Source: Longimicrobiales bacterium (GTDB taxonomy: Bacteria > Gemmatimonadota > Gemmatimonadetes > Longimicrobiales > Gaopeijiaceae). Taken from it: a stretch of DNA of 64,000 nt. This document shows positions 737 to 63,659 of the stretch, in pieces (within the stretch, counting starts at the first letter, position 1; each line of letters starts with the position of its first letter). Where the stretch lies: assembly GCA_965248195.1 (NCBI GenBank), contig CBDFIQ010000001.1:1216001-1280000 (forward strand). Reading direction: 5' to 3'. Under the pieces are notes generated by a model, which searched no databases, was not told the origin of the DNA, and worked only from the letters and a program-made list of their open reading frames with translations. The translations under genes and the position numbers were made by a program.

Positions 737-773
737 GTGGCGGTCTACGTAGACTTTTAGGGAGGAACACGTC

Positions 774-2270: not shown

Positions 2271-2297
2271 AGAAGAGGCCTGTAGAGGAGACCGAGA

Positions 2298-2984
2298 ATG
2301 ACCATGCAACAGACTAACCAGCAGAGAGGTCCGCGAAGAGGAGGCCAACGCTTTGTAAGGCACGTCGGCTTGGCGGCGCCGTTCATGTTTAACAACGTGA
2401 GCACGGACGTCTCCAGTCCGGGGGGCGCAGCGACTGGCCTCGCCGGCGTGGGTATAGATACCGCAGCCGAGCTCGCTTTCGCCAACATCCGGTATTTCGC
2501 TGACGGATCTGAAAGGCCGGACTTCGTTTTTAATCAAGAGCAGTATCGCAGTGCCTCGATCATGATCGTTGGTCTGAACTATGGCACGGGCAGCTCGCGC
2601 TCGGGCGCGATCACGCGGCCCCTGGAAGCGTGGGGAGTACGAGTATACATCGGGGAAAGCTTCGGACCGATCTTCTTGACCAACGCGATGCAGTACGGCG
2701 TGTTGACTGTGGAACTTCCCCGGCCGACGGTCGATAGGATCGCGGACTGGGTCCGGGCGAACCCGGGAATACCGATGGCGGTGGATCTGGAAAGGCAGGT
2801 GATCGAGATGCCCGGCTTGGAGCCCGTTCCCTTCCAGACCGAAGCCAGAACGCGCAACAAGCTGTTGACCGCTGTGGACGACCTGGAAGAAATCAATCCA
2901 CACCTGCCGGCGGCCAGGACGAAGAGAGCGGAGGACGAGAGAGCGCGTCCCTGGGTCTATGATTATCGTGGCACTGGCCGCTGA
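2298..2984 (+). CDS. leuD: LeuD-like small subunit, copy 2
   Basis: HVGLAAP, NVSTD, RY..DGSERPDFV, NYGTGSSRS, GESFGPIF, VDLERQ. AGGAG RBS. Confidence 0.85.
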   Translation: MTMQQTNQQRGPRRGGQRFVRHVGLAAPFMFNNVSTDVSSPGGAATGLAGVGIDTAAELAFANIRYFADGSERPDFVFNQEQYRSASIMIVGLNYGTGSSRSGAITRPLEAWGVRVYIGESFGPIFLTNAMQYGVLTVELPRPTVDRIADWVRANPGIPMAVDLERQVIEMPGLEPVPFQTEARTRNKLLTAVDDLEEINPHLPAARTKRAEDERARPWVYDYRGTGR

Positions 2985-3059
2985 GGCGCTTGTTGTGGGG
3001 TGAGCCCGCCGCTCGCTAAACTTGCCCGCTCGGGAAGCTGAATTGACGGCAAAGGAGCT

Positions 3060-3770
3060 GTGACCATCCTTCAAACTGCCCCGCAGTTCGTGCGGCATAC
3101 CGGCATCGCGGCGCCTTTCATGCAACGCGACGTCGAAGGCGAGTACATCGCCCCAGTGGGTCCTGAACTTCAGGACCTTCACGCTGTGCATTTGGACCCG
3201 GGCGCGGCAGTGCTCGAGCCGCACACCCACGACGGTTCATGGGCCGGGCAACACGCCTTCCATGGCTTCCGATACCGACCCGACGGATCGGAAGATCCGG
3301 ATTTCGTCCTCAATCAGGAGCCTTATCGTAATGCTTCGATCCTGCTCGCTGGTCGGGACTTCGGCCGTGGCAGCCTACAGGCGTTTGCGGTCATCCGGCT
3401 CATGCAGTGCGGCATGCGAGCGGTCATCGCGCCCAGCTTCGGAACGGTGTTCTATGATGACTGCTTTGACTACGGTCTGTTACCGGTGACTCTCGGCGAA
3501 GAGGTGGTCGGAAGGATCGCTGACGGCGTCAGGGCGAATCCCGAAGTGGTAATGTCGGTCGACCTCGCGAGGCAGGTGATCGAGCGCCCGGGTATGGAAC
3601 GCATTTCCTTCCAGATTGACTCCAGACGACGCGTGAATCTGCTACAGGGCTTGGACATCACCCTGGATGAACGGCTTCAGCACAGCGACAGCGCCGCGGC
3701 GATGAGGAGCCAGGATCGGAGCGCACGGCCCTGGATCTACGACACTCGTGGTGACCGAAATCCTCCCTGA
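3060..3770 (+). CDS. leuD: LeuD-like small subunit, copy 3, with a His-rich expanded loop
   Basis: HTGIAAP..FRYRPDGSEDPDFVLNQEPYRNASILLAGRDFGRGS..VIAPSFG. AAGGAG RBS before GTG. Confidence 0.85.
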   Translation: MTILQTAPQFVRHTGIAAPFMQRDVEGEYIAPVGPELQDLHAVHLDPGAAVLEPHTHDGSWAGQHAFHGFRYRPDGSEDPDFVLNQEPYRNASILLAGRDFGRGSLQAFAVIRLMQCGMRAVIAPSFGTVFYDDCFDYGLLPVTLGEEVVGRIADGVRANPEVVMSVDLARQVIERPGMERISFQIDSRRRVNLLQGLDITLDERLQHSDSAAAMRSQDRSARPWIYDTRGDRNPP

Positions 3771-3808: not shown

Positions 3809-5749
3809 TCATTCGATGATTGCCAGGCGCCGGAGGTCCCGCTCCGCGAGTAGTCGGAGCCACTCGTAGACGTCGATCTCGCTGTTCGCGGCGATGAGAA
3901 GATGAGGCCTGGCCTGATCCGGTCCGCCGAATCCGAGCCAGCGCTCCGTTGCCTCGGTGGCCTTTTCCTCGAGCCCTGGACGAGAGGCCAAGAAATCGTA
4001 TTCGAACGCTTCGAACCCGGGGAGTTTGACAATCGATCGATAGGCCACCTGCCGGGTCGCCGAATACGAATCCGTGAGGAGCTGCGCCAGATACGCGGCC
4101 ATCCAAGTACCGTCCGACGCGTCCCGAGCCGCGTCCCAGCCCAGGTGCCAGGCGAGGATCGTGCGCTGGGCCGCATCACCCTTCAGCGTCCAGAGGATTG
4201 AGGCGGCGATGGATCGCTCGTCCTCGTCCAGCTCCACGAGGGGCTGGCCGTACCACTCCTTCAGGTACCGACTCGACCACTCCAGAGTCTGGTCGAGGTG
4301 ACAGAGGTTGCACGCGTTGGGACGCCCGCTCTCCACCGAGACCTGAACGCTAGGATTGTCGATCCGGTGGCTCCGCATGGCTGAAAAGAGGCCGTACGTG
4401 GTGTGTGGCATGTGACAGTTCATGCACTCGCTGCCCGAAGACTCGGGAAGGTGTCGGGTGTGCTCCGAGATCTCGTCGGCGAAGTCCGTGTGGCAGTTCA
4501 GGCACGACCGGTTTCCGGCGACCTCGGGATCGAGCTGGGTGTCGGAGGCCTCGTACTCGTGCATTGAATGGCACGAAAGGCACGTCAGCTCGCTCGCTCC
4601 GAGGTGGGCGTCTTCCAGGAGGCCGTTGTACTCCCGACCCGCGACCCGAATCGTTCCGTCGGCCCAGAAATTGCCTTCTAGGGCGAGGGGATCGCTCCCC
4701 AGCATCTCCGCCAGTAGCGGATCTTCGGGGTCCTCCGTGTAGCGGAACACGGACCTGTACTCGTGCAGTTCGTCTCCGGCTCGGAACGGCACCCCATCCC
4801 TCCCGTACGCTCGCTGATCCGTCCACTCTCCGAAACTGTGGCATTGAGCGCACGTCTCCACGGAGCGGTGGGGCTCGAGCTTCTCGGGGTTGACGATGGT
4901 CGGATCGCGGGCGTCGGGATCCCGCAACCGGCGAAAGTACCGGAGATAGCGCCTTACCGGCGACTGATAGAAACGGACGTGCTCCTCGGCCGGACCGTGG
5001 CAGGCCTCGCACGCGATGCCCAGCTCCACCGTCCGGGTGTCGAAGCGGCCGAGGTCCGTCAGAACCCGGGGCTCGGTCCCTACCGAGTGGCACTGGGAGC
5101 AGGTACCGTTCCAGGGTGTAGCTCCCTGGACGGAGGAGCTCGGTGGCCTGAGAAACGAATCCTGGTTGGGGATCCATCTCGCCTCGGGAATCAGCCAGAC
5201 CCATGGGACCTGGACGAGTGCGCCACTGTCGGGCCCGAGAGGGCCCTCGGCCTCCTCCGGTCTGCGTATCCAGTAGTTCTGTATGTGGTGAGAGCCCGTG
5301 GTCATCACCACCCGGGCCTCGAAGCGCGGTGGGCTCTCGGGCCAATCCTCGTGCAAGCGCTGCATGAACTCGGCTGGTTGGTCGAACCAGAGGGGGTCCG
5401 GCATCTCGACCCAGAACTCGTCGCCCCGACGCTCGAGGCGCCACCGGTAGCCGCGGTCCTCGAGGACGACGTCGTCGAACATGCCCAGCACCGTGGAAGG
5501 CGTAACCGCCTGCGTCATGGTCCGATGGTAGGAACGGTGCCAGGCGTCGTACTGAGCCGGATGGCACGACTGGCACGTGACCGAGGTCGTGAACCCTTCC
5601 CCCATCGTCTGCTCCGGAAGGTCCTCCCTCAGGTCTTCGTCCACGTCCGGGCTCCAGAGAAGCCCCCCGCCGACCGCGAGCAGCGCGCAGACGACGAGGA
5701 CGATGCGGTAGGAGCGCTTCAAGGAGCCGGACGACGAAATGTGGGCCAT
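3809..5749 (-). CDS. Membrane-anchored or exported octaheme c-type cytochrome (c554/c552-like multiheme family)
   Basis: Eight CxxCH motifs: CQSCH, CSQCH, CEACH, CAQCH, CLSCH, CLNCH, CMNCH, CNLCH. N-terminal hydrophobic segment. Confidence 0.9.
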   Translation of the reverse strand: MAHISSSGSLKRSYRIVLVVCALLAVGGGLLWSPDVDEDLREDLPEQTMGEGFTTSVTCQSCHPAQYDAWHRSYHRTMTQAVTPSTVLGMFDDVVLEDRGYRWRLERRGDEFWVEMPDPLWFDQPAEFMQRLHEDWPESPPRFEARVVMTTGSHHIQNYWIRRPEEAEGPLGPDSGALVQVPWVWLIPEARWIPNQDSFLRPPSSSVQGATPWNGTCSQCHSVGTEPRVLTDLGRFDTRTVELGIACEACHGPAEEHVRFYQSPVRRYLRYFRRLRDPDARDPTIVNPEKLEPHRSVETCAQCHSFGEWTDQRAYGRDGVPFRAGDELHEYRSVFRYTEDPEDPLLAEMLGSDPLALEGNFWADGTIRVAGREYNGLLEDAHLGASELTCLSCHSMHEYEASDTQLDPEVAGNRSCLNCHTDFADEISEHTRHLPESSGSECMNCHMPHTTYGLFSAMRSHRIDNPSVQVSVESGRPNACNLCHLDQTLEWSSRYLKEWYGQPLVELDEDERSIAASILWTLKGDAAQRTILAWHLGWDAARDASDGTWMAAYLAQLLTDSYSATRQVAYRSIVKLPGFEAFEYDFLASRPGLEEKATEATERWLGFGGPDQARPHLLIAANSEIDVYEWLRLLAERDLRRLAIIE

Positions 5750-6737: not shown

Positions 6738-7706
6738 CTAGGGTGTGACGGTGACGTTCACGTAGGCGTTCGTCCAGCAACACTGGTTGGCAAAGCTCCC
6801 GTTGAGCACCTGCACGAGCAGCACATAGTCGCCAGGCTGGCTGAACGTCACCCGCGTCGTATGCTCGATGGGAACCATACCCACTTCGATCCGACTGCTT
6901 TCGGGGGCGAAACTCACGTCACCCCGTGGTCCACTAAACTTTATCCAGCTCAAGCTTTGTCGGGAAAGACCACGTTCCTCATCCTGGCTGCGTTGTAGGC
7001 CGCCTATCGTCATGCTCGCCAGGGCACTCGAAATCGTAATGGGGACCGGAGCTCCGACCCGAGCAGTGACGGGTCCCAACGTGATCCCACCTTTTCCTCT
7101 CCCTTCCGGTCCGGATGGCTCGATGAACCGGACCACCGGTGCCGCACGATCTCCCCCGAAACCGCGATTCCCTTCGAATTCCCCCATCGCCACTCCTACG
7201 GAGTTTTCGAGATTGTCGATCATGTACGATCGGACCGTGATGTGGCCTGGCACGCGATAGGTCTGACCATCGATTCGTAGGTTCCACCAAACGCGCTCAC
7301 TCCCTATGTCCGCTGGGACGTTTACGACGAAGACGCAGGTTTTGCCCTCAAGCTGACGTGTCGGGACGAGATCGCGCGGTCCCTGGGCTGTGAAGTGGGT
7401 GGGCTGAGCCCCGTTAAAGCGGGCGGGCTCGATGAAGTTGTCCGGCCCGACCGGGATGTCCAGCACCTCTTGCCGGTTCAGGCTGAAGTAACCGAAGCAG
7501 AGGTCGTAGGTGCCGTCCTCATTGGGATACCATCCCTCGAATATCGGAAGGACGGGCTGACCGGAATCGCGCACGGTTCGTATCTTCAGGTCCATTTGCA
7601 TCAGGGGATGCTCTGGCACGAGCTGCGCATCCAACGCTGGCACGTTGGCCAGCACGAGCCCGACAATCAGAAGTCCCGTCGCGGCCGACAGGAATCGAGA
7701 TATCAT
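6738..7706 (-). CDS. Secreted 'CCWTN' protein (monooxygenase partner), copy 1, with a probable Ig/PKD-like C-terminal domain
   Basis: Signal peptide ending ALDA-Q. Motifs PIFEGWYPNxDGTY, GPDNFIEP, QPTxF, FSQPGDY and CCWTNAY are shared with the genes at 40377 and 61177. Confidence 0.85.
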   Translation of the reverse strand: MISRFLSAATGLLIVGLVLANVPALDAQLVPEHPLMQMDLKIRTVRDSGQPVLPIFEGWYPNEDGTYDLCFGYFSLNRQEVLDIPVGPDNFIEPARFNGAQPTHFTAQGPRDLVPTRQLEGKTCVFVVNVPADIGSERVWWNLRIDGQTYRVPGHITVRSYMIDNLENSVGVAMGEFEGNRGFGGDRAAPVVRFIEPSGPEGRGKGGITLGPVTARVGAPVPITISSALASMTIGGLQRSQDEERGLSRQSLSWIKFSGPRGDVSFAPESSRIEVGMVPIEHTTRVTFSQPGDYVLLVQVLNGSFANQCCWTNAYVNVTVTP

Positions 7707-7910: not shown

Positions 7911-9317
7911 CTACCTCGATGCTATCGGCCTCCCCCCCTCCCTGTCAGCAACCAGCCGTGCGAAATCTTCGTCGCTGTAAAACGTCATCCCTAGCCGCAA
8001 TCTCCACATCTCATCGACCGTGCGGGAGCGGCCCAACACCCACTGGTCGGGATCAGGATTCTGGGCATTGTTCGTCGTGTTATCAAAGACCGTTGTGATC
8101 ATGATCGTCGTGCCCTCTGGCCACAGAGGCGCCCAATCGTCCTCGTAAATGAACTGCGTATGCCAACGCTGGTCCCAGTCGAGCTTGTTGATCAATTCAT
8201 ACCGGCCGTCGGGGTAGAGCACCTCCAAAATGTTGTAACCGCCGAGCAGGTGCATGTGTCCCCGGAGCGCGTGAACCTTGGCGTTCCCTTCGAGACGGAC
8301 AGCGGTCTTGTAAATCGCCTGGCTGTTCGGCGGAATGATGAGCGGATTATCCTCCATTCCCGCCATCGACGTTTGGTCGAAAACGATGTCGCCCTCGGTC
8401 GGATACGGGATCTCCCCCTCCGGATACAGCCACACCCCGACCTGCAACGAGACATCTTCTAGGTCTTCCGTAAGCCTGGCCGGGTAGAAATGCGGGTTGA
8501 ACAGGACCTGATCTCCCTCCTTCAGGAGTCTTCCGGTACCCTCGGGGTAGATCGCGCCCCTCACACCGACCGCCGCCTCTGCCAGCTGATCCCGCTGAGT
8601 GGCCCTAATCTCCGGAGGCGGCTGATGGGTTCCCGGTCCCTGGTACACGTCTTCCGGCATCCGATTGATCACTCTAGCCGAGCCGTGGTGGAAGACCCCA
8701 TAAAATTCCGGCTTCGTGGCCTTGAGCTCCACGGCCCTGACCCACCGCTCACCCGTGATCCCTAGCTCTGGCGTCATTTCCACGGGATACAAGTTGGGCC
8801 ACTGGTCCATCCCGTTGGCCCTGACGGTGTATCCAGGGGAAGTGATGATCACATCCGGCTCACGACCCAACTCATCCTCGAATGCCCACGTCCCGCCCCA
8901 CCCGGGGAGAGCCGGGTTCGGCAGAAGATCGGCCGGATCACCCAGAGGAGCGCCCGCATCCACCCACTGCACGATCGTTTCGATCTCATCGTCTGTGAGG
9001 GACGGGTCGTTCTTGAAGTGCTGGATCCCCACCCCGACATCCAACGGCCAAGGCGGCATGAATCGGTTCGACACCTGATACTTGATCAGGGGCGCGAACG
9101 ACCGCACGTCTTCATAGGTCAAGAGGGTCATCGGAGCAACGCTGCCCTCGCGATGGCACACTTGGCAGTTCTGCTGAAGGATCGGTGCCACGTCCTTCGC
9201 GTACGTGACAGCGTCAGCGGATTGAGGTGCAACCGGCGACGGCATCGCGATCACCCCAGTCCCCCCCAAAAGGAACCAACCAAGCAATGCTTGGAACCGC
9301 TTCGCCTCTCTCATCAT
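7911..9317 (-). CDS. Heme c-fused copper type II (PHM/DBH-like) monooxygenase, copy 1 (Arg type)
   Basis: Signal peptide, CQVCH and MPPW (cytochrome c). CuH ligands VFHH and HFYP. CuM ligands RGHMH and DEM. TAAGGAG RBS before the ATG at 9317. Confidence 0.9.
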   Translation of the reverse strand: MMREAKRFQALLGWFLLGGTGVIAMPSPVAPQSADAVTYAKDVAPILQQNCQVCHREGSVAPMTLLTYEDVRSFAPLIKYQVSNRFMPPWPLDVGVGIQHFKNDPSLTDDEIETIVQWVDAGAPLGDPADLLPNPALPGWGGTWAFEDELGREPDVIITSPGYTVRANGMDQWPNLYPVEMTPELGITGERWVRAVELKATKPEFYGVFHHGSARVINRMPEDVYQGPGTHQPPPEIRATQRDQLAEAAVGVRGAIYPEGTGRLLKEGDQVLFNPHFYPARLTEDLEDVSLQVGVWLYPEGEIPYPTEGDIVFDQTSMAGMEDNPLIIPPNSQAIYKTAVRLEGNAKVHALRGHMHLLGGYNILEVLYPDGRYELINKLDWDQRWHTQFIYEDDWAPLWPEGTTIMITTVFDNTTNNAQNPDPDQWVLGRSRTVDEMWRLRLGMTFYSDEDFARLVADREGGRPIASR

Positions 9318-9502
9318 CGGGTGCTCCTTATCGGGTGCTTCTTGCCGTTGAGTCGCGAAGCGACTCTTCCCCAATACTGCCGCGCATCCCATCTCGCTCA
9401 TCTGCCGTCAGCCACGTTGGAAACAATGGCATCAGATACATATTTTACGGCGATCTGAGCCGAGGACGCAAGGCACTGTCGGGTCGGGCGCACGCTGATC
9501 CC

Positions 9503-33510: not shown

Positions 33511-34836
33511 ATGATAAACTTGAATAATACCTTGGATAAGAGAAGAAGCCGGGGCTGTCCCGCGGGTAGTCGGTGGCGTCGCGCCGGGACCTTGGGGGCA
33601 TGCGCGCTCGGGGTCTTCATGGTGGCGGCCTGTGACAGCCTGCTGGAAGTGGAGCTTCCTGGACAGTTAAAGTCGTCAGACCTGGACAATCCCCGGCTGG
33701 CAGACGTGCTGGTCAGGAGTGTCCAGTCCGACTTCGACTGTGCGCTGTCGACCTATGTCTGGGCCGGCGGTCTATGGGGCCACGACCTGTATCAGAGCGA
33801 CAATTTCAGCCGGGGCCGCTTGACCCAGCTTCGGTCCAACGAGGTCTTGACCTTCGAACAGGATGAGTGCAACGAATTCACCTTTCCGCAAATCTATCTT
33901 CCGTTCCAGATCGTGCGCTTTCAGGGAGAGGAAGCAGTGAGGCTGATCGAGGGCTTCCCCGACGGCGAAGTTGAAGACAAGGACTTCCTACTCGGCAAGG
34001 CGCACGCCTATACGGGCTATGCCTACGAGATCCTGGGCGAAACCATGTGCGAGATGGCGTTCGACGGTGGTCCGGTCGCAACGCGTCAATCCGCGATGGA
34101 GACCGCGAAGCTCCGGTTCACGTCGGCGATCGACCACGCGAGTCTGGTCACCTCCGGCCCGAACGTCGCCGAGGCTCTCGAGATCGTCAACATGGCGTTG
34201 GTCGGTCGGGCGAGGGCGAGCCTGAACCTAGGGGATGTTGCCGGAGTATTGGCGGACGCGGGCGCGGTGGACGCGGACTTCGTCCGATTCGCGGACATGG
34301 ACGATAGCGATAGTCGGCGTTACAACCAGGTGCACAACAGAAACGAGCGGGCTGGGGGAAACTCTACGGTGCACCCGAGCTACGGGAACCTGATGGTGGG
34401 CGGTGTGCCGGACCCCAGGGTGGACGTCGTGTTCCAGCCCAACGTAATCCCATTCGACGGGGTTTCGGAAGTCTGGTATCAATTCAAGTATCCGGATAGG
34501 AGTGCCGACATTCCATTTTCCTCCTGGCGCGAGGCCCAGCTCATGATCGCGGAGGTAGATCCGGTGCAGTCCGTGGCGATCATCAACAATCTCCGTTCGG
34601 CCCCTTGGGGTTTGCCTGCGTACACCGCCGGGACTGCGGCCGAGGTTTTCGCGCAGGTGTGGGAGGAGCGGCGGCGAGAGCTCTTCCTGCAAGGAACCAA
34701 GATCGGAGACATGCTGCGGCTCGACATTCCCGGAGTCTCGACGGATGACTTCGAGACTGGTGTAAACCAGCGAGGCAACCCGTACGGACCGCACACCTGC
34801 TATCCCTTGCCGGATCAGGAGACTCTCGCTTTGTGA
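33511..34836 (+). CDS. susD: SusD/RagB-like lipoprotein 2
   Basis: Lipobox [28 protein letters not shown]. Confidence 0.88.
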
Positions 34837-37064
34837 GTCCCAAAATGAAGGCTGATTGGAGGGCCGGGAGGGGCTGGAGCGCACTGCCCCTGGTGGGTGT
34901 CGCTGTCGTGGCGGGCTGGTTGACCTCGTGCTCGACGGCGGAAGTCCACGAGCCGCAACAGACTTCCTACACGGACGCCCAGGCCCGTGCGGGTGCGGCG
35001 GTGTACTTCACGACATGCGCGAGCTGTCACCTCACGAACTTTCAGGGATTCGGTGAAGCTCCGGCGTTGGCGGGCCCTGATTTCCTGAATACGTGGGGTC
35101 CCCGGCCGGTGGCCGAGCTCCTGGAGTTGGTCGGGGCGTCCATGCCTCCTACGGCTCCCCAGTCCCTTTCGGACGAGGAATACACGTCGGTGGTGGCTTA
35201 CCTGCTGAGCGTGAACGGAGTGGAGGCGTCCGGAACCCAGCTCACCTCATCGTCCTCCGGGCCGGTCTTTGCTGGGATGGAAGCCGCCGAAGAGGTCGGC
35301 CCCAGTAGGCCGCCGTCCCCAGGCACGCCCGGCAATGTGCCCTCGCCCAACGCTTTCGACCGGCCTCCGCCACCCTCCGGCGAGGTCACCGAGATCCCTA
35401 CAGGCCGCGTCGTGACCTATCGTCCCGTGGAGGAGTTCGCCCCGGTGTTGCCAGGCGATCTGACTTCCCCCCCCGACGCGGATTGGCTGCACTGGCGCCG
35501 AACCCTGGATGGCCAGGGCTACAGTCCCCTTTCCCAGATCAACGGGAGCAATGTCGACGACCTGCAGCTCGCATGGGCGTGGGGCATGGAGCCTGGAACG
35601 AGCCAGACTACACCCTTAGTCCGGGACGGAGTCCTCTACCTTGCCAGCCAAGGCAATGTGATCCAAGCCTTGGACGCGGCGGAAGGCACGCTGCTTTGGG
35701 AGTACCGTCGGCGATTCCCGGAGGGGAGAGGGGGTGGAGCCGACTCCCGGAGCGTGCGAAGTCTGGCGATCTTCGAAGACCTGATTATCCTCGCCACGAG
35801 GGACGCCGCCCTCGTTGCGTTGGACGCCCGTACCGGTAAGCCTCGGTGGGAGACCCAGGTGGCCGACTGGGAAGAGGGATTCAACTACACCTCCGGATCC
35901 ATCGTCGCCGACGGGAAGATCCTCAACGGAATGAGAGGGTGCAGGAGCTTCGGAAGTAGCTGTTTCATCACGGCCCACGATGCGAAAACGGGTGAAGAAC
36001 TCTGGCGCACGCATACGATCGCGCGCCCCGGCGAGCCGGGTGGGGACACGTGGGGCGATCTTCCCATGGAGCTCCGGGCGGGCGTGGACGTTTGGATCCC
36101 CGGGACTTACGACCCGGAATTGGGGTTGGTCTACTACGGCACCGCCCAATCCAAGCCATGGATGGCAGTAAGTAGGGGGCTCACGACGGCCGACTCCACC
36201 CTGTACGCGAACTCGACACTGGCCCTCGACATCGATACGGGCGAGATCGTCTGGTACTTCACACACGTGCCCGGAGAGTCTCTGGATCTGGACGAGGCCT
36301 ATGAGCGAGTGCTTGTCGACGTAGACGACCGCCCGGTGGTCCTCAGCATCGGAAAGAACGGAATCCTCTGGAAGCTGGACCGGAGGGACGGCGCCTTCCT
36401 AGATCTGAAAGAGACCGTCTACCAGGACATCTTCGAGGAGATCGACCGGCAAGAGGGGTGGGTGCGCTACAGGGAAGACATCCGGAACATGCAGTTCGAC
36501 GAGTGGCTCTCCGTCTGTCCTGGCACAGCTGGTGGGCATAACTGGCACTCGACCGCCTACCATCCCGGGGCGCAGTTGCTCGTGATCCCCCTGAGCCAGA
36601 GCTGTATGGACATGATTCCGCGGGAAGTGGCGCTCGAGGAGGGCCGAGGCGGCTCAGGGGGCACACGCATGTGGCGGGAGAGCCCGGTCACGGACCAGCT
36701 CGGGAAGCTCGCGGCTTACGACGTATCTACCATGGAGGAGGTCTGGAGCGTCGAGCAGCGTGCGCCTTTCCTCACCAGCGTGCTGACCACCGGAGGAGGG
36801 CTCGCCTTTGCGGGCGACTACGACCGCCGTTTCCGGGCGTACGACGTCGAGACGGGCCAGGTGCTCTGGGAAACTCGCCTCGCCAGATCCGCGGAAGGGT
36901 TTCCGATCAGCTACGAGGTCGACGGCGTGCAGTACGTGGCCGTTCCCGCGGGGCAAGGAGGCGGAAGCCCTTGGCGGATCCCGACTTTCCTCGGCGCCGA
37001 GATGATCCAGCCCGAGGGAGACGGGCACAACGCGCTCTATGTTTTCCGGCTCCCGACCCGGTGA
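34833..37064 (+). CDS. Lipoprotein with an N-terminal cytochrome c fused to a PQQ alcohol-dehydrogenase-type domain
   Basis: Lipobox LTSC, CASCH..MPP, Pro-rich linker, [31 protein letters not shown]. Confidence 0.9.
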
Positions 37065-37123
37065 GCGCGCGGAGCAGTCCCGGCCTCGCCGGGGTTGAGG
37101 TAGGAGTGGAGCGGACACGCCTC

Positions 37124-37170
37124 TTGTGAATCACACTTAAGAGGGGCTTCGGCCGATTGTGAATCACACT
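37124..37170. promoter_or_regulatory. Two copies of the palindromic box TTGTGAATCACACT, a candidate operator
   Basis: Identical 14-mers at 37124-37137 and 37157-37170, each with a TGTGA-N-TCACA core. Confidence 0.6.
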
Positions 37171-37202
37171 CGAGAGAGCTTCGACCGAGGAGAATAGGCG
37201 CT

Positions 37203-38861
37203 TTGGACAAGCACAAGCACGGTGACGGGCGAATTAGCCGAGGGGACTTCCTGAAGAAGGGTTCGACCCTGGGTGTAGGCGCGGCAGCCTTAGGTGGGTT
37301 GGACGGGGGAGACCTGGGAGCCCAGGAGGTCGTATGGGATCGGGAGGCCGATTTCGTCACAGTCGGGGCGGGCACCGCGGGACTCGCCGCTGCCGTCTCG
37401 GCGCTCGATCACGGAGCGTCGGTGATCATGGTTGAGGCGAACACGGACATCGGTGGCCATGGGTTGGTGAGCGGGGGGAATGTTCACCTGGGTGGTGGGA
37501 CCAGTAATCAGCGAAAATTCGGAGTCGAGGATTCGGCGGACCGGGTCTTCGAGGACTGGGTGAGCCCCGACCATGTATTGAGCCGTTACAGCGACAGGGA
37601 CCTGGTACGTGCGTTTGCCGATGAAAACGCCGCCACCTTCGAATTCCTTATCGAGAACGGCGTCCAGTTTCAGGACCACTTGACCGGTCCCGATCGCGCT
37701 TCGACGGTGCGCCGACAGCAACGAACGGTACAATGGCCCATCGCAAGCGAGCGTGTCACGCACAATGCGACCCGAGTCGGCTCCGGTCTCATCAGGGCGC
37801 TGGAGAAGAGCGCGAGAGCGAAAGGTGTGGAGATCCTCTTGGAACACCGCATGACCGGGATCATCCGCGAGAACCCGTTCTCAGGGAGGGTTCTGGGCGT
37901 CACTGCGATGCACCGGGGCGTAAGCGTGAACATCCGTGCGACGAAGGGCGTCTTGGTTGCGACGGGGGGCAGCAGAAGCAACGTCGCCCTTCGCAGGACC
38001 TTCGACCCGAGACTCACCGAGGAGTATCAGGTCGCGGGGGAGCCCTGGTCCAAACAGAGTGGGGACGGAGAACTGGCGGGGATGGCGATCGGAGCGGCGC
38101 TATGGAGCACCGCGAATCAGACTGCCGAGGACATCAGGATAATCTCGAAGACGGCTCGCATCGGGTGTAAGTGGGGCTATGCCAGTCTCATTTGGGAGCC
38201 CGATAGCATGATGTTCCCTCGTGCACGCGCCTCGGGCCTCACCATTCGGGGTTGGCAAGACGCGATCATGGTGAAGCAGACCGGCCGGAGGTTCTGGAAC
38301 GAGATGGACGGAGGGTTCGATTTTTACGCGGCGGCTATGGCGTATAGTGGAGATGATTCTAAGAGGAATGGAGGCGGACCCATCTGGGCCATCTTCGATG
38401 CCGGCGCCGTGGAACGGCAGGGTTGGGATCCCAATCCTCCCTTCGTTGATCGCGACGGCTACTTCTTCAGTGGGGACACGATCGCGGAGCTCGCCGGCAG
38501 GATCGACAACGAGTACCAACTGGAGCCCATGCCGCCGAGGGCTCTCGAAGAAACGGTAGCGAGGTATAACTCCTTCGTGGATACGGGGACCGATCTGGAC
38601 TTCGGAAAGCCCACACCCATGCACAAGATCCAGACGCCGCCGTTCTACGCGGCCTGGTCCACACCGATTCTCCACGACTGCACGACCGGTCTGAGAACGA
38701 ACATGAAAGCCCAGGTCATGGACTACTACGGCCAGGTCATACCCGGCCTCTACTGCGCAGGCGAGTCGCAGGGGGGCTTCGCCCAGCACGGCCTCGGCCG
38801 ATGCCTCGTGTTCGGTCGCATCGCGGGAAGAGACGCGGCATTGAACAGTGGTGAGGCCTAA
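37203..38861 (+). CDS. FAD-dependent oxidoreductase (fumarate reductase flavoprotein / ketosteroid dehydrogenase family) with a Tat-like signal
   Basis: VGAGTAG, GG..VSGG, VATGG, GDG, IPGLYCAGE, FGRIAG. N-terminal SRGDFLK. Confidence 0.88.
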   Translation: MDKHKHGDGRISRGDFLKKGSTLGVGAAALGGLDGGDLGAQEVVWDREADFVTVGAGTAGLAAAVSALDHGASVIMVEANTDIGGHGLVSGGNVHLGGGTSNQRKFGVEDSADRVFEDWVSPDHVLSRYSDRDLVRAFADENAATFEFLIENGVQFQDHLTGPDRASTVRRQQRTVQWPIASERVTHNATRVGSGLIRALEKSARAKGVEILLEHRMTGIIRENPFSGRVLGVTAMHRGVSVNIRATKGVLVATGGSRSNVALRRTFDPRLTEEYQVAGEPWSKQSGDGELAGMAIGAALWSTANQTAEDIRIISKTARIGCKWGYASLIWEPDSMMFPRARASGLTIRGWQDAIMVKQTGRRFWNEMDGGFDFYAAAMAYSGDDSKRNGGGPIWAIFDAGAVERQGWDPNPPFVDRDGYFFSGDTIAELAGRIDNEYQLEPMPPRALEETVARYNSFVDTGTDLDFGKPTPMHKIQTPPFYAAWSTPILHDCTTGLRTNMKAQVMDYYGQVIPGLYCAGESQGGFAQHGLGRCLVFGRIAGRDAALNSGEA

Positions 38862-38980: not shown

Positions 38981-40384
38981 ATGATGTCCGTCGCAGAAAA
39001 CACGTACGTAGGGACCCGAAGAGGATTTCTGGTTCTGACAGTCGTCGGATTGGTGGGCCTTCCGGGCGTTGTTGCCGGCCAGGACATCACCTTCGCCTCG
39101 GACGTCGCTCCGATTCTACAGCAGAACTGTCAGATCTGTCACCGACCGGGGGCGATCGGCCCGATGCCTCTGCTCACGTACGAAGACGCCAGGAGTTATG
39201 GTTTTTTTATCAAGATGAAGGTGGAGAGCCGACTGATGCCGCCCTGGCAGATTGTACGCGGTGTCGGGATCCAGGATTTCAAGAACGACCGCTCGCTGAG
39301 CGACGAAGAGATCAGCACGCTCGTCCAGTGGGTCGATTCGGGCATGCCGGAGGGAAACCCGGCGGATCTTCCAGAGCCTATCGATTGGGCTGCGCGTGAC
39401 GTGCTGGGTTGGCAGCTCGAGGGACAGCTGGGGCGCCCGCCGGATATGATCGTGGCTTCACCGCCGTTCGACGTGGTTCCCAACGGTCAAGACCAGTGGT
39501 CGTTCCCGATAACGAGGCTGGACGATCTGAAGGAGCGGAGGGTGGTCATGGCCGCCGAGATCAGGCCCGGGAATGTCGAGGCACGATACGTTTTTCACCA
39601 CGGCAACAGTCGGTTGGCCGCTTCGGCTGCCGGAAAGGACTACGACGTCTACCCCGAAGATGGCGGGACGACGCTCGAGCCCGGTGAGGAAATCTCATGG
39701 AACCTGCACTTCTTTCCTATCGGGCAGGAAGTCAAAGACGCCTTCATCGAAACCGGCGTGTGGTTCTACCCGAAGGACCAGGAGCCGCAGTTCGAGTCCT
39801 ATTCTACCACGTTCTTGGCTGATCCCATCAACAACCGCAGCGTCATGCCATCGGGTAATCCGTGTTGGAAGCAGCCCGCGGAGGCTGACTTGGACAGCGA
39901 GGCATGTACGCGGCTGACCAGATCCAACAGCCTTCTGATACCGCCCAATGGCCAAGCGATGCTGCAGGGCGTGCACGTGCTCGATCGGCCCATGCGGCTC
40001 CACAGTATTCGGGGGCACATGCACATGCGCGGCAGGCATCATTCGCTGGAAGCGATCTATCCCGATGGTAGGCATGAAATCGTGAACAGGATCAACTTCG
40101 ACCAGAGATGGCATATCGCGCACATCTATGAAGATCACGCGCGGCCGCTCTTCCCGAAGGGGACGGTCCTCATCGTCAACTCGTACTACGACAATACGGC
40201 AGACAACCCGACCAATCCCGATCCCGAGCAGTGGGTTACGTTTGGCAGACGGAGTGCCAGCGAGATGTCACACCTGTGGGTTGGGGTGACCTATTTCGAC
40301 AACGAGGAAGACTTCCAGAAGTTGGTAGAGGAGCGCGAACAGCGCAGACGGACGCCTGCGAACGCAGTAGGAGGAGATGGCTAA
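38981..40384 (+). CDS. Heme c-fused PHM/DBH-like copper monooxygenase, copy 2 (Arg type)
   Basis: CQICH and MPPW. VFHH, LHFFP, RGHMH, SEM. Confidence 0.9.
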   Translation: MMSVAENTYVGTRRGFLVLTVVGLVGLPGVVAGQDITFASDVAPILQQNCQICHRPGAIGPMPLLTYEDARSYGFFIKMKVESRLMPPWQIVRGVGIQDFKNDRSLSDEEISTLVQWVDSGMPEGNPADLPEPIDWAARDVLGWQLEGQLGRPPDMIVASPPFDVVPNGQDQWSFPITRLDDLKERRVVMAAEIRPGNVEARYVFHHGNSRLAASAAGKDYDVYPEDGGTTLEPGEEISWNLHFFPIGQEVKDAFIETGVWFYPKDQEPQFESYSTTFLADPINNRSVMPSGNPCWKQPAEADLDSEACTRLTRSNSLLIPPNGQAMLQGVHVLDRPMRLHSIRGHMHMRGRHHSLEAIYPDGRHEIVNRINFDQRWHIAHIYEDHARPLFPKGTVLIVNSYYDNTADNPTNPDPEQWVTFGRRSASEMSHLWVGVTYFDNEEDFQKLVEEREQRRRTPANAVGGDG

Positions 40385-41276
40385 CCGCTGGGTAGTTGCT
40401 ACGCTTCTGACCATTAGTTGGACTCCCCTCGAGGGGCAGCAGCCCGGCTCCGCCGGTTATGACTTCATGCCGGGGACGTTTCTGCCGTCCGGTCAGCCCA
40501 TTGTACCGATTTTCGAGGGGTGGTATCCGAATCCGGACGGGACCTACGGGCTCTGTTTCGGATACTGGAGCGGCAACACCGAGGAAACGCTGAGCATCCC
40601 ACTGGGATCGGACAACGTCATCGAGCCGAGGCAGTATGACGGCAATCAGCCGACGCTATTCAGGCCAAGACCGAGAACGGGGTGGCGAAGGCATTACTGC
40701 ACCTTTGTGATCGACGTGCCGGCGGACTGGGGGAGCCAGGATGTGATCTGGACGGTCGGGAACCATGGGGAGACGTATGCGGCGGTAGGGCACCTGACGG
40801 TGCCTTCCTATATGCTCGACGAACCAGTGGCCGCGGGGCGTGCGTCCTCCATCCCCGAAGACGAACCGTGGGATTCGAGGGCGGGCTACGGGAGCTGGCA
40901 GGGCGCTGAGGCACCCCTGCTCCAATTCGTCGAGCCGGGCGGGCCGGAAGGGATCGGACGGAGTGGCGTGACTGCCGGACCGGTCACGGTCCGCGTCGGA
41001 CAGCCACTGACGCTGAGGGTCAGGGTGGGCACCCCCGACGGGAGGGACGCCCGCTGGTGGGTTGGATGGTGGGAGCACCAAGGTCCCGGGACCGTGACGA
41101 TCGGCCAGCGAGAGATGGAAGCCGACCCGACGACTGACTATTTGGCGACGACCACGGCAACGTTCAATGAACCGGGCGACTACGTTATCGCTTTGCAGGC
41201 GATCGAGAGCATTCAATCCTTCGAGCGCTTCTGCTGTTGGACCAACGGCTACGTGGAGGTCACCGTTACACGGTAA
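40377..41276 (+). CDS. Secreted 'CCWTN' protein, copy 2
   Basis: PIFEGWYPNPDGTY, FNEPGDY, CCWTNGY. Start overlaps the monooxygenase stop by 8 nt. Confidence 0.88.
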   Translation: MANRWVVATLLTISWTPLEGQQPGSAGYDFMPGTFLPSGQPIVPIFEGWYPNPDGTYGLCFGYWSGNTEETLSIPLGSDNVIEPRQYDGNQPTLFRPRPRTGWRRHYCTFVIDVPADWGSQDVIWTVGNHGETYAAVGHLTVPSYMLDEPVAAGRASSIPEDEPWDSRAGYGSWQGAEAPLLQFVEPGGPEGIGRSGVTAGPVTVRVGQPLTLRVRVGTPDGRDARWWVGWWEHQGPGTVTIGQREMEADPTTDYLATTTATFNEPGDYVIALQAIESIQSFERFCCWTNGYVEVTVTR

Positions 41277-41379: not shown

Positions 41380-42441
41380 ATGAAGCATGCCAATCGGATC
41401 GGGTCGACATTCCTCGCCGTCTTCGCGGCGTTGGTCGTGATGTTGGCCGGGGATCTACACGCCCAAGGAGCCAACAATCCGTATCACGCCGAAGACGCTT
41501 GGGAGAACCTCCCGGAGGGGAGGGTCTTCGGAGCGCTCACTGGGGGCTTCCCTGATCCCGATGGCGAGCACCTGTGGATGTTGAACAGGTGTGGCGCAAA
41601 CATATGCGCGGATAGCGACCTGGACCCGATCCTCAAGTTCGACATGGACGGGAACGTGGTGGACAGCTTCGGCGGAGGCCTATTCGGGTTCCCTCACGGT
41701 TTCTTCCTGGACCACGACGGTTTTCTGTGGGTGACCGAGGGTGCGCCCGACGGAGACAATCGCGCAGAACCTGGCTACAGGCGTGGGTTGGGCCATCAGG
41801 TCCACAAACTCAACCAGCGGGGAGAGGTGGTGATGAGCCTGGGCGAGGCCGGAGTCCACGGGGACGATGAGGACCACTTCAATGGACCCGCTGATGTTCT
41901 GGTCGCTCCGAATGGTGATATCTGGGTCGCGGATGGGCATCGCGGCGGCAACAACCGCATCGTCAAATTCGACAGCGAGGGTCGATTCCTCCTGGCGGTG
42001 GGTGGTGGTGTCGGTTCAGAGAGCAAGGAAGCGGGCAGGTTTGATGATCCGCATGGTCTCGCGATGGATTCCAGAGGACGGCTCTTCGTCGCCGATCGGG
42101 GTAACAGTCGGATTCAGATCTTCGACCAGACGGGCGATCTCCTCGCGATTTGGACGCAGTTCGGAAAGCCGAGCGGTCTCTTCATCGACGGTGACGACAT
42201 CCTCTATGTGGTCGACGGGTTGTCGGGTCTGGAACGTCCCGCATGGCGGGACAACCCCGGATGGGAGCAGGGTATCCGGATCGGAGACGCTGAAACGGGG
42301 TGGGTGACGGCCTTCATTCCCAACGTTTCTGCGGCGGCCGGTGCCGGCATGGAGTTCCTTGCCGTGGATTTCGAGGGCAACATCTACGTCAACGACCTCT
42401 CCCGAGTGCGTTTGGCGAAGTACACGCAGTTCAGGCCGTAG
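41380..42441 (+). CDS. Secreted PAL-like NHL beta-propeller (DGH/Glu variant)
   Basis: FPHGF, ADGHRGGNNR, DPHGL, ADRGNSR, GMEFL. Signal peptide ending LHA-Q. Confidence 0.88.
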   Translation: MKHANRIGSTFLAVFAALVVMLAGDLHAQGANNPYHAEDAWENLPEGRVFGALTGGFPDPDGEHLWMLNRCGANICADSDLDPILKFDMDGNVVDSFGGGLFGFPHGFFLDHDGFLWVTEGAPDGDNRAEPGYRRGLGHQVHKLNQRGEVVMSLGEAGVHGDDEDHFNGPADVLVAPNGDIWVADGHRGGNNRIVKFDSEGRFLLAVGGGVGSESKEAGRFDDPHGLAMDSRGRLFVADRGNSRIQIFDQTGDLLAIWTQFGKPSGLFIDGDDILYVVDGLSGLERPAWRDNPGWEQGIRIGDAETGWVTAFIPNVSAAAGAGMEFLAVDFEGNIYVNDLSRVRLAKYTQFRP

Positions 42442-59501: not shown

Positions 59502-60845
59502 TTAGCCACCGCCCTGCTGCGCGACCGTCTGGACCTCTCTTTCAGCCTTGAGCGTCTCGTAACCCTCATCGTCGAGGTGAGTTACGGCTATCCAGGCATG
59601 CGACATCTCGTCGGCCGTGCGGCTGCCCCGCCCGACCCAAACCTCCGGATCGGGGTTGTACGGATTGTTTTCCGTATTGTCATACCATGCGGTGAGAATC
59701 ATGACCGCACCGGTGGGCACCAACGGCGCCACATCCTCTTCGTACAGGTGGCTCAGGTGCCAATGCGCATTCCAATTGGAGATCATACTCACCATCTCCC
59801 GCTCGCCCGTCTCCGGGTAGAAGATCTCCAAGGACTTAGCGACCAGCCTCAGGTGCCCGTGTGGCTGGAAGCTGTCGATACGGACCGGGTGGTCCCACGT
59901 GTGGAACCCCTGGGTCATCGCAGTCCCGTGGGGAGCAATATCGAGGTCGCCCTCTAAGCGGTAATTGCGCAAACTCTGCTCATACTCGGGCTCATAACCC
60001 TCGGGATAAAGCCAGAAGGCGACCGACATCACGTCGTCCACGACCTCTTCGCCCATGGGGTAGAGGTGGATGCTCCAGCGCACATAGGAGTCGACAGGAA
60101 GCAGCCGCGCGGCGTCACTCGGGACAATCTCCCCGAGTTTTCCAAGCGCGTATTCGGTGAAACGACCACGCTGGCTCTTCAGCTCACCGTCTTCCATGAC
60201 GCTCATGGTGGTGTTGGCGTGGTGCACGACCTTATAACCCTCCAGGGACGGCTTGACCTCGATGGCCCTGATATACCGAGGCGTAGTGTTCCCGATGGGA
60301 ACGAGGGGCTCCCACCACAGGTCTTGGCCATCGGCCGGAACCGTAATGGGCTTCGACTCGACCACGATGTCCGGCTCTCCGTAGTCGTACTCGGCCGCCA
60401 GCCGCCACTCGCCGAGGTCAGGGAATCTCCGGGGGGGGGGCATGTCCGCCGGGTCGCCCTCGACGGCGCCCTGGTCGACCCACTGGGCGATCGTCTCGAT
60501 GTCTTCCGAAGACAGACGCTTGTCACTCTTCAGGGCCTGAACGCCCACATCGGTATCGTAGTGATACGGCGGCATTTGCTGCGTGGTCACCTTGAGCTTG
60601 ATCAGCGGTGCGTACAGCTTCGCCTGCTCGTAGGTAATCAGAGACATGGGCCCGATCGAGCCATCCCGATGGCACAGCTGACAGTTCTGCTGAAGAATCG
60701 GGGCTACGTCCCTCGTGAACGTGACGTGAGCCATCTCTTGGGAGAGGGCCTGTCCGTGAAAGGATGCGAGGGCGACGCTGACCACCGCGGGCACGCTAGC
60801 CCAGCCAACTCTCCGCCTCCATGAATCGGATCTCTTCTCTCTCAT
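59502..60845 (-). CDS. Heme c-fused PHM/DBH-like copper monooxygenase, copy 3 (Gln type)
   Basis: CQLCH and MPPY. VVHH, IHLYP, FQPHGH, DEM. Signal peptide. Confidence 0.9.
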   Translation of the reverse strand: MREKRSDSWRRRVGWASVPAVVSVALASFHGQALSQEMAHVTFTRDVAPILQQNCQLCHRDGSIGPMSLITYEQAKLYAPLIKLKVTTQQMPPYHYDTDVGVQALKSDKRLSSEDIETIAQWVDQGAVEGDPADMPPPRRFPDLGEWRLAAEYDYGEPDIVVESKPITVPADGQDLWWEPLVPIGNTTPRYIRAIEVKPSLEGYKVVHHANTTMSVMEDGELKSQRGRFTEYALGKLGEIVPSDAARLLPVDSYVRWSIHLYPMGEEVVDDVMSVAFWLYPEGYEPEYEQSLRNYRLEGDLDIAPHGTAMTQGFHTWDHPVRIDSFQPHGHLRLVAKSLEIFYPETGEREMVSMISNWNAHWHLSHLYEEDVAPLVPTGAVMILTAWYDNTENNPYNPDPEVWVGRGSRTADEMSHAWIAVTHLDDEGYETLKAEREVQTVAQQGGG

Positions 60846-61176
60846 CTTCCTCTCCTTTTATGCGGCAGGATCGTCACCGCAATGCAATTGCCCCCCCCAA
60901 AACACCACTCCAATATGATTCTCAGCGACGGAGCTTGCTCACGTCACTGGACTCGACAGCACTAAAACGAGGTAAATCCCGGTATCTCACCACACCATCA
61001 CACTACCTTCTGGCATTGTCAAGTGTTCCTAACCAAACAAACCTGAGGGCCCCGTTCGGGCCCCCGTAAGCGTACTTCGCCAACACCTCAGCCTCCTCTC
61101 CGGCTAAATATTGTGCCGTCAGGATCCGCCGCTGCCGGGCCGAAAACGACAGGGCCGCGTAGCGAGCGGTAGGCCG

Positions 61177-62133
61177 CTAAGGGGATACCGTTACGCGGAT
61201 GTACCCGTTCGTCCAGCAACATTGGTCGCCGGGGGAGCCTTCGAGGGGGTTAAAGCTATCGACGCGGACGCGCAGGATGTATGTGCCGGGTTCGCCGAAC
61301 GTCGCCGTCGTTGTGGCTTCACCATCTTCGTCGGGCTCCGGCTCCCCGCGTTCACCATCTTCGTCGGGCTCCGGCTCCTCGCCAAACTCTGCCGGACTAG
61401 GTCCCTGATGCGTGTACCATTTCACACCAGGAGTAATACGCTCTCGATCACTCCCTACCCCCCGGGCCTCCGGGTCAAACCGATCAGCGACCCAGACCGT
61501 CAGCGTCAGCGGTGTGCCGACGGACGCGGCCATGGGAAGGGGATTCCGAACGCTTCCAATCGGGCTCTCTCCCTCTAACGCCACTGGATCGGTAGCGGGA
61601 TTGCCGGATGTAGACATCGGGCCCCAGAGTTCGAGCCCATTCCGGCTCAACTTGAGCATCGGGGGCAGGGAGCCCATCGCCATCGCACCGTGACTGAGGG
61701 CATAGGCGCCTATCCCGATCCTTCCCGGGACTGAATGTGTCACGCCATGAGCGGTAATCGTCCAGACCACCCTGCCGCCGCTTTCCGCAAAATCCCCCGG
61801 CAAGGTGATGGTGAAGACACCATTATCCCGACGCGGCGAGAAGAGAGTAGGTTGTGTCCCATTGAACTCGGCTGGTTCGATAGAGTTGTCCGGCCCGACG
61901 GGGAGGCTCACTACCTCTTCCCGATTGCGGTTGAAGTATCCGAATGAGACCGTATAGGTGCCGTTCGCATTCGGGTACCATCCCTCAAAAAAAGGGGTTA
62001 CAGCGAGACCGTGGGTAGCCAAGTTTCGCTGCTGCGCTGACAGCGGCCTTCTATCCTGTGCGTCCAGGGGTGCCCAACTCAGAACGGCAAGCGCCAGTGC
62101 GAGGCATCCGACGCATACACGGTGCTTCATCAT
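61177..62133 (-). CDS. Secreted 'CCWTN' protein, copy 3
   Basis: PFFEGWYPNANGTY, GPDNSIEP, FGEPGTY, CCWTNGY. TAAGGAG RBS before the ATG at 62133. Confidence 0.88.
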   Translation of the reverse strand: MMKHRVCVGCLALALAVLSWAPLDAQDRRPLSAQQRNLATHGLAVTPFFEGWYPNANGTYTVSFGYFNRNREEVVSLPVGPDNSIEPAEFNGTQPTLFSPRRDNGVFTITLPGDFAESGGRVVWTITAHGVTHSVPGRIGIGAYALSHGAMAMGSLPPMLKLSRNGLELWGPMSTSGNPATDPVALEGESPIGSVRNPLPMAASVGTPLTLTVWVADRFDPEARGVGSDRERITPGVKWYTHQGPSPAEFGEEPEPDEDGERGEPEPDEDGEATTTATFGEPGTYILRVRVDSFNPLEGSPGDQCCWTNGYIRVTVSP

Positions 62134-62213
62134 CGACTCCTTATTCATCAATGTGGCTTTCACTCAACTCTACGGCGACACGCCCGCTCGCTGAAGGCCG
62201 AGTCCGGGGCGTA

Positions 62214-62275
62214 GAAACGAAATAAATGGGGACCAGAGGAGCCTCTCGATAAACATGAGAAGCTCCTCTGGTCCC
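62214..62275 (-). terminator. Hairpin or terminator between monooxygenase copy 4 and the CCWTN gene
   Basis: GGGACCAGAGGAGC/GCTCCTCTGGTCCC 14-bp stem followed by a T-rich tract on the minus strand. Confidence 0.55.
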
Positions 62276-62315
62276 TACCGGCGTAAAACGCTAGTACAAC
62301 AACACCTACCTACTC

Positions 62316-63659
62316 CTAGCCGCCGCCCTGCTGCGCGACCGTCTGGACCTCTCTTTCAGCCTTGAGCGTCTCGTAACCCTCATCGTCGAGGTGAGTTACG
62401 GCTATCCAGGCATGCGACATCTCGTCGGCCGTGCGGCTGCCCCGCCCGACCCAAACCTCCGGATCGGGGTTGTACGGATTGTTTTCCGTATTGTCATACC
62501 ATGCGGTGAGGATCATGACCGCACCCGCGGGCACCAACGGCGCCACATCCTCTTCGTACAGGTGGCTCAGGTGCCAATGTGCACTCCAATTGGAGATCAT
62601 ACTCACCATCTCCCGCTCGCCCGTCTCCGGGTAGAAGATCTCCAAGGACTTAGCGACCAGCCTCAGGTGCCCGTGTGGCTGGAAGCTGTCGATACGGACC
62701 GGGTGGTCCCACGTGTGGAACCCCTGGGTCATCGCAGTCCCGTGGGGGGCAATATCGAGGTCGCCCTGTAAGGCGTAACTGCGCAAACTCTGCTCATGCT
62801 CGGGCTCATAACCCTCGGGATAAAGCCAGAAGCCGACCGACATCACGTCGTCCACGACCTCTTCGCCCATGGGGTAGAGGTGGATGCTCCAGCGCACATA
62901 GGAGTCGACAGGAAGCAGCCGTGCGGCGTCACTCGGGACAATCTCCCCGAGTTTTCCAAGCGCGTATTCGGTGAAACGACCACGCTGGCTCTTCAACTCA
63001 CCGTCTTCCATGACGCTCATGGTGGTGTTGGCGTGGTGCACGACCTTACGGCCCTCCACGGAAGGCTTGACCTCGATGGCCCTGATATACCGAGGCGTAG
63101 TGTTCCCGATGGGAACGAGGGGCTCCCACCACAGGTCTTGGCCGTCGGCCGGAACCGTAATGGGCTTCGACTCGACCACGATGTCCGGCTCGCCGTAGTC
63201 GTACTCGGTCTTCAGCCGCCAATCGCCGAGGTCAGCGAACCTCCGGGGCGGGGGCAGGTCCGCCAGGTCGCCCTCGACGGCGCCCTGGTCGACCCACTGG
63301 GCGATCGTCTCGATATCTTCCGGAGACAGACGCATGTCACCCTTCAGGGCCTGAATGCCTACATCGGTATCGTAATGATACGGCGGCATTTGCTGCGTGG
63401 TCACCTTGAGCTTGATCAGCGGTGCGTACAGCTTCGCCTGCTCGTAGGTAATCAGAGACATGGGCCCGATCGAGCCATCCCGATGGCACAGCTGACAGTT
63501 CTGCTGAAGAATCGGGGCTACGTCCCTCGTGAACGTGACGTGAGCCATCTCTTGGGAGAGGGCCTGTCCGTGAAAGGATGCGAGGGCGACGCTGACCACC
63601 GCGGGCACGCTAGCCCAGCCAACTCTCCGCCTCCATGAATCGGATCTCTTCTCTCTCAT
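62316..63659 (-). CDS. Heme c-fused PHM/DBH-like copper monooxygenase, copy 4 (Gln type)
   Basis: Same motifs as copy 3. About 19 substitutions in 447 aa by manual comparison. Confidence 0.9.
   Translation of the reverse strand: MREKRSDSWRRRVGWASVPAVVSVALASFHGQALSQEMAHVTFTRDVAPILQQNCQLCHRDGSIGPMSLITYEQAKLYAPLIKLKVTTQQMPPYHYDTDVGIQALKGDMRLSPEDIETIAQWVDQGAVEGDLADLPPPRRFADLGDWRLKTEYDYGEPDIVVESKPITVPADGQDLWWEPLVPIGNTTPRYIRAIEVKPSVEGRKVVHHANTTMSVMEDGELKSQRGRFTEYALGKLGEIVPSDAARLLPVDSYVRWSIHLYPMGEEVVDDVMSVGFWLYPEGYEPEHEQSLRSYALQGDLDIAPHGTAMTQGFHTWDHPVRIDSFQPHGHLRLVAKSLEIFYPETGEREMVSMISNWSAHWHLSHLYEEDVAPLVPAGAVMILTAWYDNTENNPYNPDPEVWVGRGSRTADEMSHAWIAVTHLDDEGYETLKAEREVQTVAQQGGG

Follow-up and report, generated by a model that had tools for sequence, protein, structure and literature searches.

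What does a predicted secreted protein with two adjacent cysteines near its C-terminus do for the copper enzyme beside which it is encoded? The question is raised by a locus in a window of 64 kb, i.e., the whole stretch of DNA that was analyzed, in which the arrangement occurs three times. Here, the protein is called X and the enzyme, a predicted heme-copper monooxygenase, M. Class A X proteins carry the cysteine pair (CC), class B X proteins have two domains without it, and an M is classed with its partner. The features concerned are the following.

40377..41276, + strand: X copy 2, the gene under study, class A, 299 aa (ORF, alignment, model)
40482..40811, + strand: N-terminal domain of X copy 2, about residues 36-145, the sole part common to all X classes
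40914..41273, + strand: C-terminal PKD/Ig-like domain of X copy 2, about residues 180-299 (fold and PKD matches)
41232..41237, + strand: codons of Cys286-Cys287 of X copy 2, where the variable-length loop runs into the last strand
40554..40700, + strand: Cys60-to-Cys108 span of X copy 2, an optional co-varying pair on N-domain strands
38981..40384, + strand: M copy 2, cytochrome c domain and PHM-fold core (fold model, ligand alignment)
39236..39289, + strand: hairpin MPP..[VIML]G[IV] after the heme Met of M copy 2 (motif count in X-linked versus X-less M)
41380..42441, + strand: NHL beta-propeller gene directly 3' of X copy 2 (generic NHL match)
6738..7706, - strand: X copy 1, class A, with CC and the extra Cys pair (ORF, alignment)
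7911..9401, - strand: M copy 1, the gene immediately 5' of X copy 1 (ORF, adjacency)
61177..62133, - strand: X copy 3, class A, mature part with CC only (ORF, alignment)
62316..63659, - strand: M copy 3, the gene immediately 5' of X copy 3 (ORF, adjacency)
59502..60845, - strand: M copy 4, located 3' of X copy 3 and duplicating M copy 3 (97% nucleotide identity)

The three X genes were found as open reading frames where the original prediction had placed them, and an alignment (40-44% identity) confirmed that they have P(I/F)FEGWYPNxxGTY, FGY, GxDNxIEP, GxQPTxF, FxxPGxY and CCWTN(A/G)Y in common and that copies 1 and 2 share an additional cysteine pair (C60/C108 in copy 2). X copy 2 consists of a signal-peptide-like N-terminus, an N-terminal beta-sandwich and a PKD/Ig-like domain ending in CCWTN; in copies 1 and 3, an ATG start is followed by a signal-peptide-like stretch. 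Each copy is preceded by an M gene, as had been noticed before. The stop of M copy 2 overlaps the start of X copy 2 by 8 nt, and the gaps from M to X are ~200 nt for copy 1 and ~180 nt for copy 3. The 8-nt overlap suggests that M and X are co-transcribed. In four RNA-library runs, contigs match parts of the M, X and NHL genes, with DNA carry-over being possible, and none of the contig pieces listed for these runs bridges the M-X junction. A scan for promoters and terminators returned matches at chance level. X copy 3 is flanked by M copies that are 97% identical at the DNA level (M-X-M, 59502-63659), which reflects a recent duplication.

Exported catabolic genes are packed between 19329 and 58404; they include four NHL propellers, four PQQ dehydrogenases and three gene pairs whose sequences look SusC/SusD-like. 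The copy 2 pair is immediately preceded (34833-38861) by an exported-type FAD_binding_2 flavoprotein and a cytochrome c-PQQ dehydrogenase, which are possible electron donors for M; these two are found near only few M-X pairs, the others being at L082:1203-2834, L095:2238-3911 and L091:1648-3861. A multiheme cytochrome with c554/c7-like motifs (3809-5749) is encoded on the same strand as X copy 1, ~1 kb downstream of it, and at 125-3770 a single aconitase-family large subunit occurs amid three different Aconitase_C small-subunit paralogs, an unusual 1:3 set.

Animal copper enzymes of the PHM/DBH type make amidated hormones and noradrenaline, and M resembles these enzymes in fold. The AF2 model of M copy 2 (pLDDT 87) has two PHM-fold beta domains (jelly-roll) and matches PHM (1SDW; Z 17.1, rmsd 3.4, 236 aligned) and DBH (4ZEL; Z 15.3, rmsd 4.1, 264 aligned), the next unrelated match having a Z of 8.7. 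The N-terminal 91 residues match the cytochrome PccH (Z 7.6), and the cytochrome c domain has a CxxCH at 50-54 and the likely axial ligand Met86. The copper ligands H206, H207 and H243, and H346, H348 and M429, form the same His-His...His and His-x-His...Met sets as in PHM (1SDW, 5WM0) and DBH (4ZEL). To describe the family, 253 complete M-X pairs were used; incomplete pairs and the wrong-frame L247 were left out. The alignments underlying the M fold exclude L035, which has an ambiguous residue. Judged by alignment and by the order of motifs, CxxCH, the heme Met and all six copper ligands (His3 at CuH, His2Met at CuM) are invariant in 253/253 of these M. As far as fold and ligands go, the earlier label of heme c-monooxygenase is sound, and M, a predicted dicopper monooxygenase, would work like PHM and DBH. 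As a side observation, L087 (G000 C1:124572-125732) and L097 (G000 C1:615451-616892) hold an M-like protein in which CxxCH is retained and the copper ligands are lost, and an X-less M split in two ORFs.

M nevertheless differs from PHM and DBH: it shares 16% identity with them, is bacterial, carries a fused c-type heme domain and is paired with X. PHM R240 has an Arg at the equivalent position in M copies 1 and 2 of the window (R344 in copy 2); among class A M, this residue is Arg in 81/146 and Gln in 65/146, and in class B it is Glu or Gln. A PAL-like NHL protein, which would be the lyase of a PAM system (PHM plus PAL), is no constant neighbor: in 80 GTDB loci, an NHL gene is adjacent in 6 of 87 cases and lies within the locus in 37. 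For the NHL gene that follows X copy 2, generic NHL matches outrank PAL (3FVZ). A constant third gene, either PAL-like or a reductase, was ruled out by neighbor counts across loci. By fold and ligands, M would be a PHM/DBH-type enzyme but not necessarily a peptide-amidating PHM. Literature searches, mainly of open-access papers, listed nothing on X or on a heme-fused bacterial enzyme of this kind.

X itself belongs to no named family, as originally stated. It has no PDB sequence match, its Pfam and NCBIfam matches all fall below cut-off, and an Atlas search returned just hypothetical or PKD clusters for X and no named match for its N-domain. The model of X copy 2 (pLDDT 92, pTM 0.90) is nearly all-beta, and X is predicted to be secreted and to consist of two beta-sandwiches, the second of which is PKD/Ig-like. 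In the model, this C-domain has an Ig-like fold (best Z 8-10 over 90-110 aligned residues), and its matches include the repeat units of giant surface proteins; its PF00801 score in copy 2 is 14.7 bits, below the cut-off of 23.5, and 44/117 X members have a PKD match at E<0.05 (best E 3.5e-07). For both domains, the matches are limited to generic Ig-like binding scaffolds. The whole protein matches just generic tandem-Ig proteins, with a TM by query <0.3 in every match listed, and there is no solved structure matching two-domain X among these. PKD/Ig-like proteins (PF00801; intimin D0-D1, SbsC, MSP) share the fold of the C-domain; for the CC loop and the conserved N-domain there is no named counterpart.

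The residues conserved over all X classes cluster in the N-domain, which is likely the monooxygenase-binding module, and none of them is an invariant His, Met or Cys (253 pairs). In the model, a variable-length loop precedes the last strand, and CC lies where this loop ends. Between GxY and CC there are mostly 14-19 residues and up to 29, and CCWTN is nearly fixed. The extra cysteine pair of the C60/C108 type co-varies strictly (37 X with both, 216 with neither, 0 with one, out of 253) and, being optional as well, is likely a structural disulfide. Two class A X proteins carry long C-terminal additions that could hint at substrates, i.e., tandem cupin-like repeats in P0177 and RidA-like repeats in L287:1324-3468, both judged by eye.

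The association of X with M extends far beyond the window. The genome encodes 21 X paralogs, each of which adjoins an M on the same strand, directly upstream in 15 cases and only downstream in 6. In 80 GTDB loci, 86 of 87 X adjoin M (63 upstream of M and 23 downstream), the exception lying at a contig edge. The position directly downstream of M, which the original prediction named, thus holds for most paralogs of this genome but for only a minority in the GTDB loci, and is not general, since X is found on either side of M. Over all loci fetched with X queries, this genome included, M is directly adjacent in either order to 288 of 319 distinct X; among the remaining 31, 15 lie close to the edge of their locus, 12 belong to X-X arrays that connect to an M, 2 face an M encoded on the other strand, and for 2 the flanks that were fetched contain no M. 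In 41 related genomes, M is present in all 17 that have X and in 19 altogether, and the copy counts track each other (rho 0.97); as the genomes are kin, such linkage and copy-number counts are only descriptive. Within one genome, the paralog distances of X and M correlate as well, with a Mantel rho of 0.87 for 20 pairs and of 0.58 for 14 class A pairs. On trees, gene order flips at least 9-10 times, and the partner class is kept throughout.

This linkage, the congruent trees and the matched copy numbers strongly support the earlier view of X as a dedicated accessory protein; X is neither mostly unlinked to M nor matched by a characterized family of unrelated function. Linkage and co-divergence would equally follow from the copying of a two-gene cassette. 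Taken as a whole, a dedicated partnership of M and X is very probable. A search for long X-M fusions yielded 15 candidates, none of which was significant, which is weak evidence. The sole fusion-like record, P0179, was rejected as it looks like a deletion or a chimera.

The family is large and patchy. One search gave 2727 relatives of X copy 2 at E<=0.001, and among the 120 listed, every one with a source name is called hypothetical. The genes around X copy 2 fit a Gemmatimonadota (Longimicrobiales-like) host, and relatives also occur in records of Acidobacteriota and Gammaproteobacteria. X is present in 35/201 genomes of its own phylum and in 29/301 genomes of the phylum of G041. In some class B loci, 2-4 tandem X follow a single M (L102-L105, L107, L109-L111, L113 and L119), and the X within such arrays have diverged to 68-78% identity in the three arrays compared.

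M can occur alone. M-like genes were found in 67 of the same 301 genomes (a count that includes the unpublished G068), and, as X-less cytochrome c-PHM is common, this enzyme type needs no X in principle. A set of 26 X-less M is split from the X-linked M in the tree with a support of 1.0. The two groups differ in a hairpin, [VIML]G[IVE], just after the heme Met, which is present in 250/253 X-linked M versus 2/26 X-less M. The split and the hairpin together indicate that one M clade acquired X along with a new surface feature, and the hairpin may be the docking site of X. At L358, L359 and L361-L363, the X-less M is preceded by another conserved, Pfam-less lipoprotein-like ORF, a possible alternative partner.

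As to the cysteine pair, the original prediction focused on CC as the functional motif that defines the family. This focus is not supported, as CC is missing from 107/253 paired members and from 6/21 paralogs of this genome (15 class A, 6 class B), and the N-domain is the conserved core. Class A comprises 146/253 X. CC is invariant there, the Trp beside it is near-invariant (98%), and the extra cysteine pair is optional (37/146). Of the partner M, 0/146 have a Cys pair in the hairpin that follows the CuM His-x-His and 0/146 have a CxxC in the tail. Class B comprises 103/253 X; here, the partner M has the hairpin Cys pair in 102/103 and a C-terminal CxxC, mostly CPLC, in 94/103. The remaining 4/253 X consist of the N-domain alone and have two Cys of their own, with partner M that lack both the hairpin Cys pair and the tail CxxC. 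Such X are found at L281-L285, directly upstream of M, and count ~144 aa in mature form.

Adjacent cysteines have precedents in other systems. The vicinal disulfides of PQQ methanol dehydrogenase and arabinofuranosidase (1WD4) are adjacent Cys-Cys pairs as in the predicted exported X, but these proteins have an unrelated fold, and the CC of X is on a protein separate from the catalytic site. The ceiling of the methanol dehydrogenase active site is described as a disulfide (PMC9728263), and vicinal disulfides are said to bind ligands such as ring faces, to stabilize structure or to switch conformation (PMC12102755). By analogy, a ligand-capping role of CC is possible. For X as a whole, we give an even chance to the reading that it is the non-catalytic partner subunit of M, whose CC-tipped loop in class A caps the substrate site. 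The N-domain would bind M, perhaps through the hairpin that follows the heme Met. In class A, the CC that tips the variable loop would become a vicinal disulfide once X is exported, and this sulfur ceiling would contact or select the substrate, so that each paralog pair may handle a different substrate. In X without CC, other loops would cap the site, with M bearing its own disulfides. With electrons reaching copper via the heme of M, no redox activity would be required of X. Loci in which one M has an array of 2-4 diverged X are as expected of exchangeable adaptors. A reduced-alphabet DCA of M-X coevolution had too little power (Meff 59 and 103) and was noisy; the residue pairs it ranked highest, L285/P287/E382 of M with G35/Y103/D91 of X (script numbering), may reflect phylogeny and are not used as evidence.

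That Cys pairs are swapped between X and M is explained no less well by a redox role than by a cap. CC could cycle between dithiol and disulfide and reduce the heme or copper of M, with the lineages that lack CC having moved the Cys pair to M, as the complementary counts of the two classes would suggest. In 2/24 scanned X-less loci, moreover, an AhpC/TSA redoxin domain is fused N-terminally to M (L370:511-2610, L371:184-2067). However, just three class changes are required on either tree, which reduces the complementarity to few events and one clade split, and extra Cys are absent from 15/26 X-less M in the 430 residues examined. In the class A model, the hairpin Cys positions are on neighboring strands, as in a structural cross-strand disulfide. 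In addition, M has a heme of its own, and X lacks a thioredoxin fold, its model being nearly all-beta and its sequence being without CxxC. Of the roles in the original prediction, the cap and the relay are both still plausible, the relay being rather unlikely.

An alternative in which X is not a subunit of M but its substrate has lower standing and is judged improbable. Proteins such as MauG and QhpG mature partner proteins, and M might hydroxylate or cross-link a residue of X, e.g., the Trp or a Cys near CCW. The one-to-one co-divergence, the several X per M and the near-invariant Trp would suit a maturase and its substrate, and peptides are the substrates of PHM. Yet the CCW Trp is missing from class B and N-domain-only X, no recognizable catalytic scaffold is present in X, and the R240 equivalent is retained in just 81/146 class A M. 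A Gly end is rare in X, with class A tails trimmed shortly after CC, and none of the 21 untrimmed paralogs ends in Gly.

The idea that X is a dedicated copper chaperone, loading M through CC, was part of the original prediction and has lost ground; it is now improbable. In its favor are the strict linkage of X to a dicopper enzyme and the ability of neighboring thiols to bind Cu(I); a crude pattern scan of this genome, weak as evidence, found no PCuAC-like or Sco-like protein. The periplasmic copper chaperones CopC, CusF, PCuAC and Sco, which feature a conserved His/Met cluster or a CxxxC metal site, resemble X in that X is likewise predicted to be exported, beta-rich and linked to a copper enzyme. 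X has neither feature and no Pfam or NCBIfam match to chaperone families, and it lacks an invariant His or Met, its best His column being 171/253 and Leu in copy 2. CC is dispensable, as the M of the 107/253 partners without CC keep all six copper ligands, and one chaperone per enzyme paralog would be unusual. Finally, that X solely folds, stabilizes or surface-tethers M, with CC as a structural staple outside catalysis, is the least probable of these readings, even though Ig/PKD domains are common spacers of the giant surface proteins that the C-domain matches and secreted proteins often carry disulfides, since CC is invariant in class A where an ordinary structural pair is optional, and the 21 paralogs show no anchor motif.

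The M-X system would bear on the enzymes that M resembles. PHM and DBH are studied as animal enzymes, and both their electron delivery and an open-to-closed mechanism are still debated (PMC12164859). With a soluble bacterial version that has a built-in heme and a removable partner, such questions of mechanism would become directly testable, and nature already offers a comparative set: X with CC, M with the Cys pairs, X reduced to its N-domain, and M without X. Tentatively, and with less than even confidence, M and X can be regarded as an undescribed two-subunit, self-reducing class of bacterial PHM/DBH-type enzymes, whose Ig-like subunit is exchangeable and would program or redox-gate the dicopper site by means of an antibody-like loop tipped with a vicinal disulfide. 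Marine Gemmatimonadota and Acidobacteriota would have amplified it to >20 pairs in a genome and would use these as a set of modules to oxidize diverse organics. The M-X system could supply new catalysts for C-H hydroxylation. As the family is large, unannotated and up to ~20-fold amplified in uncultured bacteria, it likely represents an unrecognized periplasmic metabolism.
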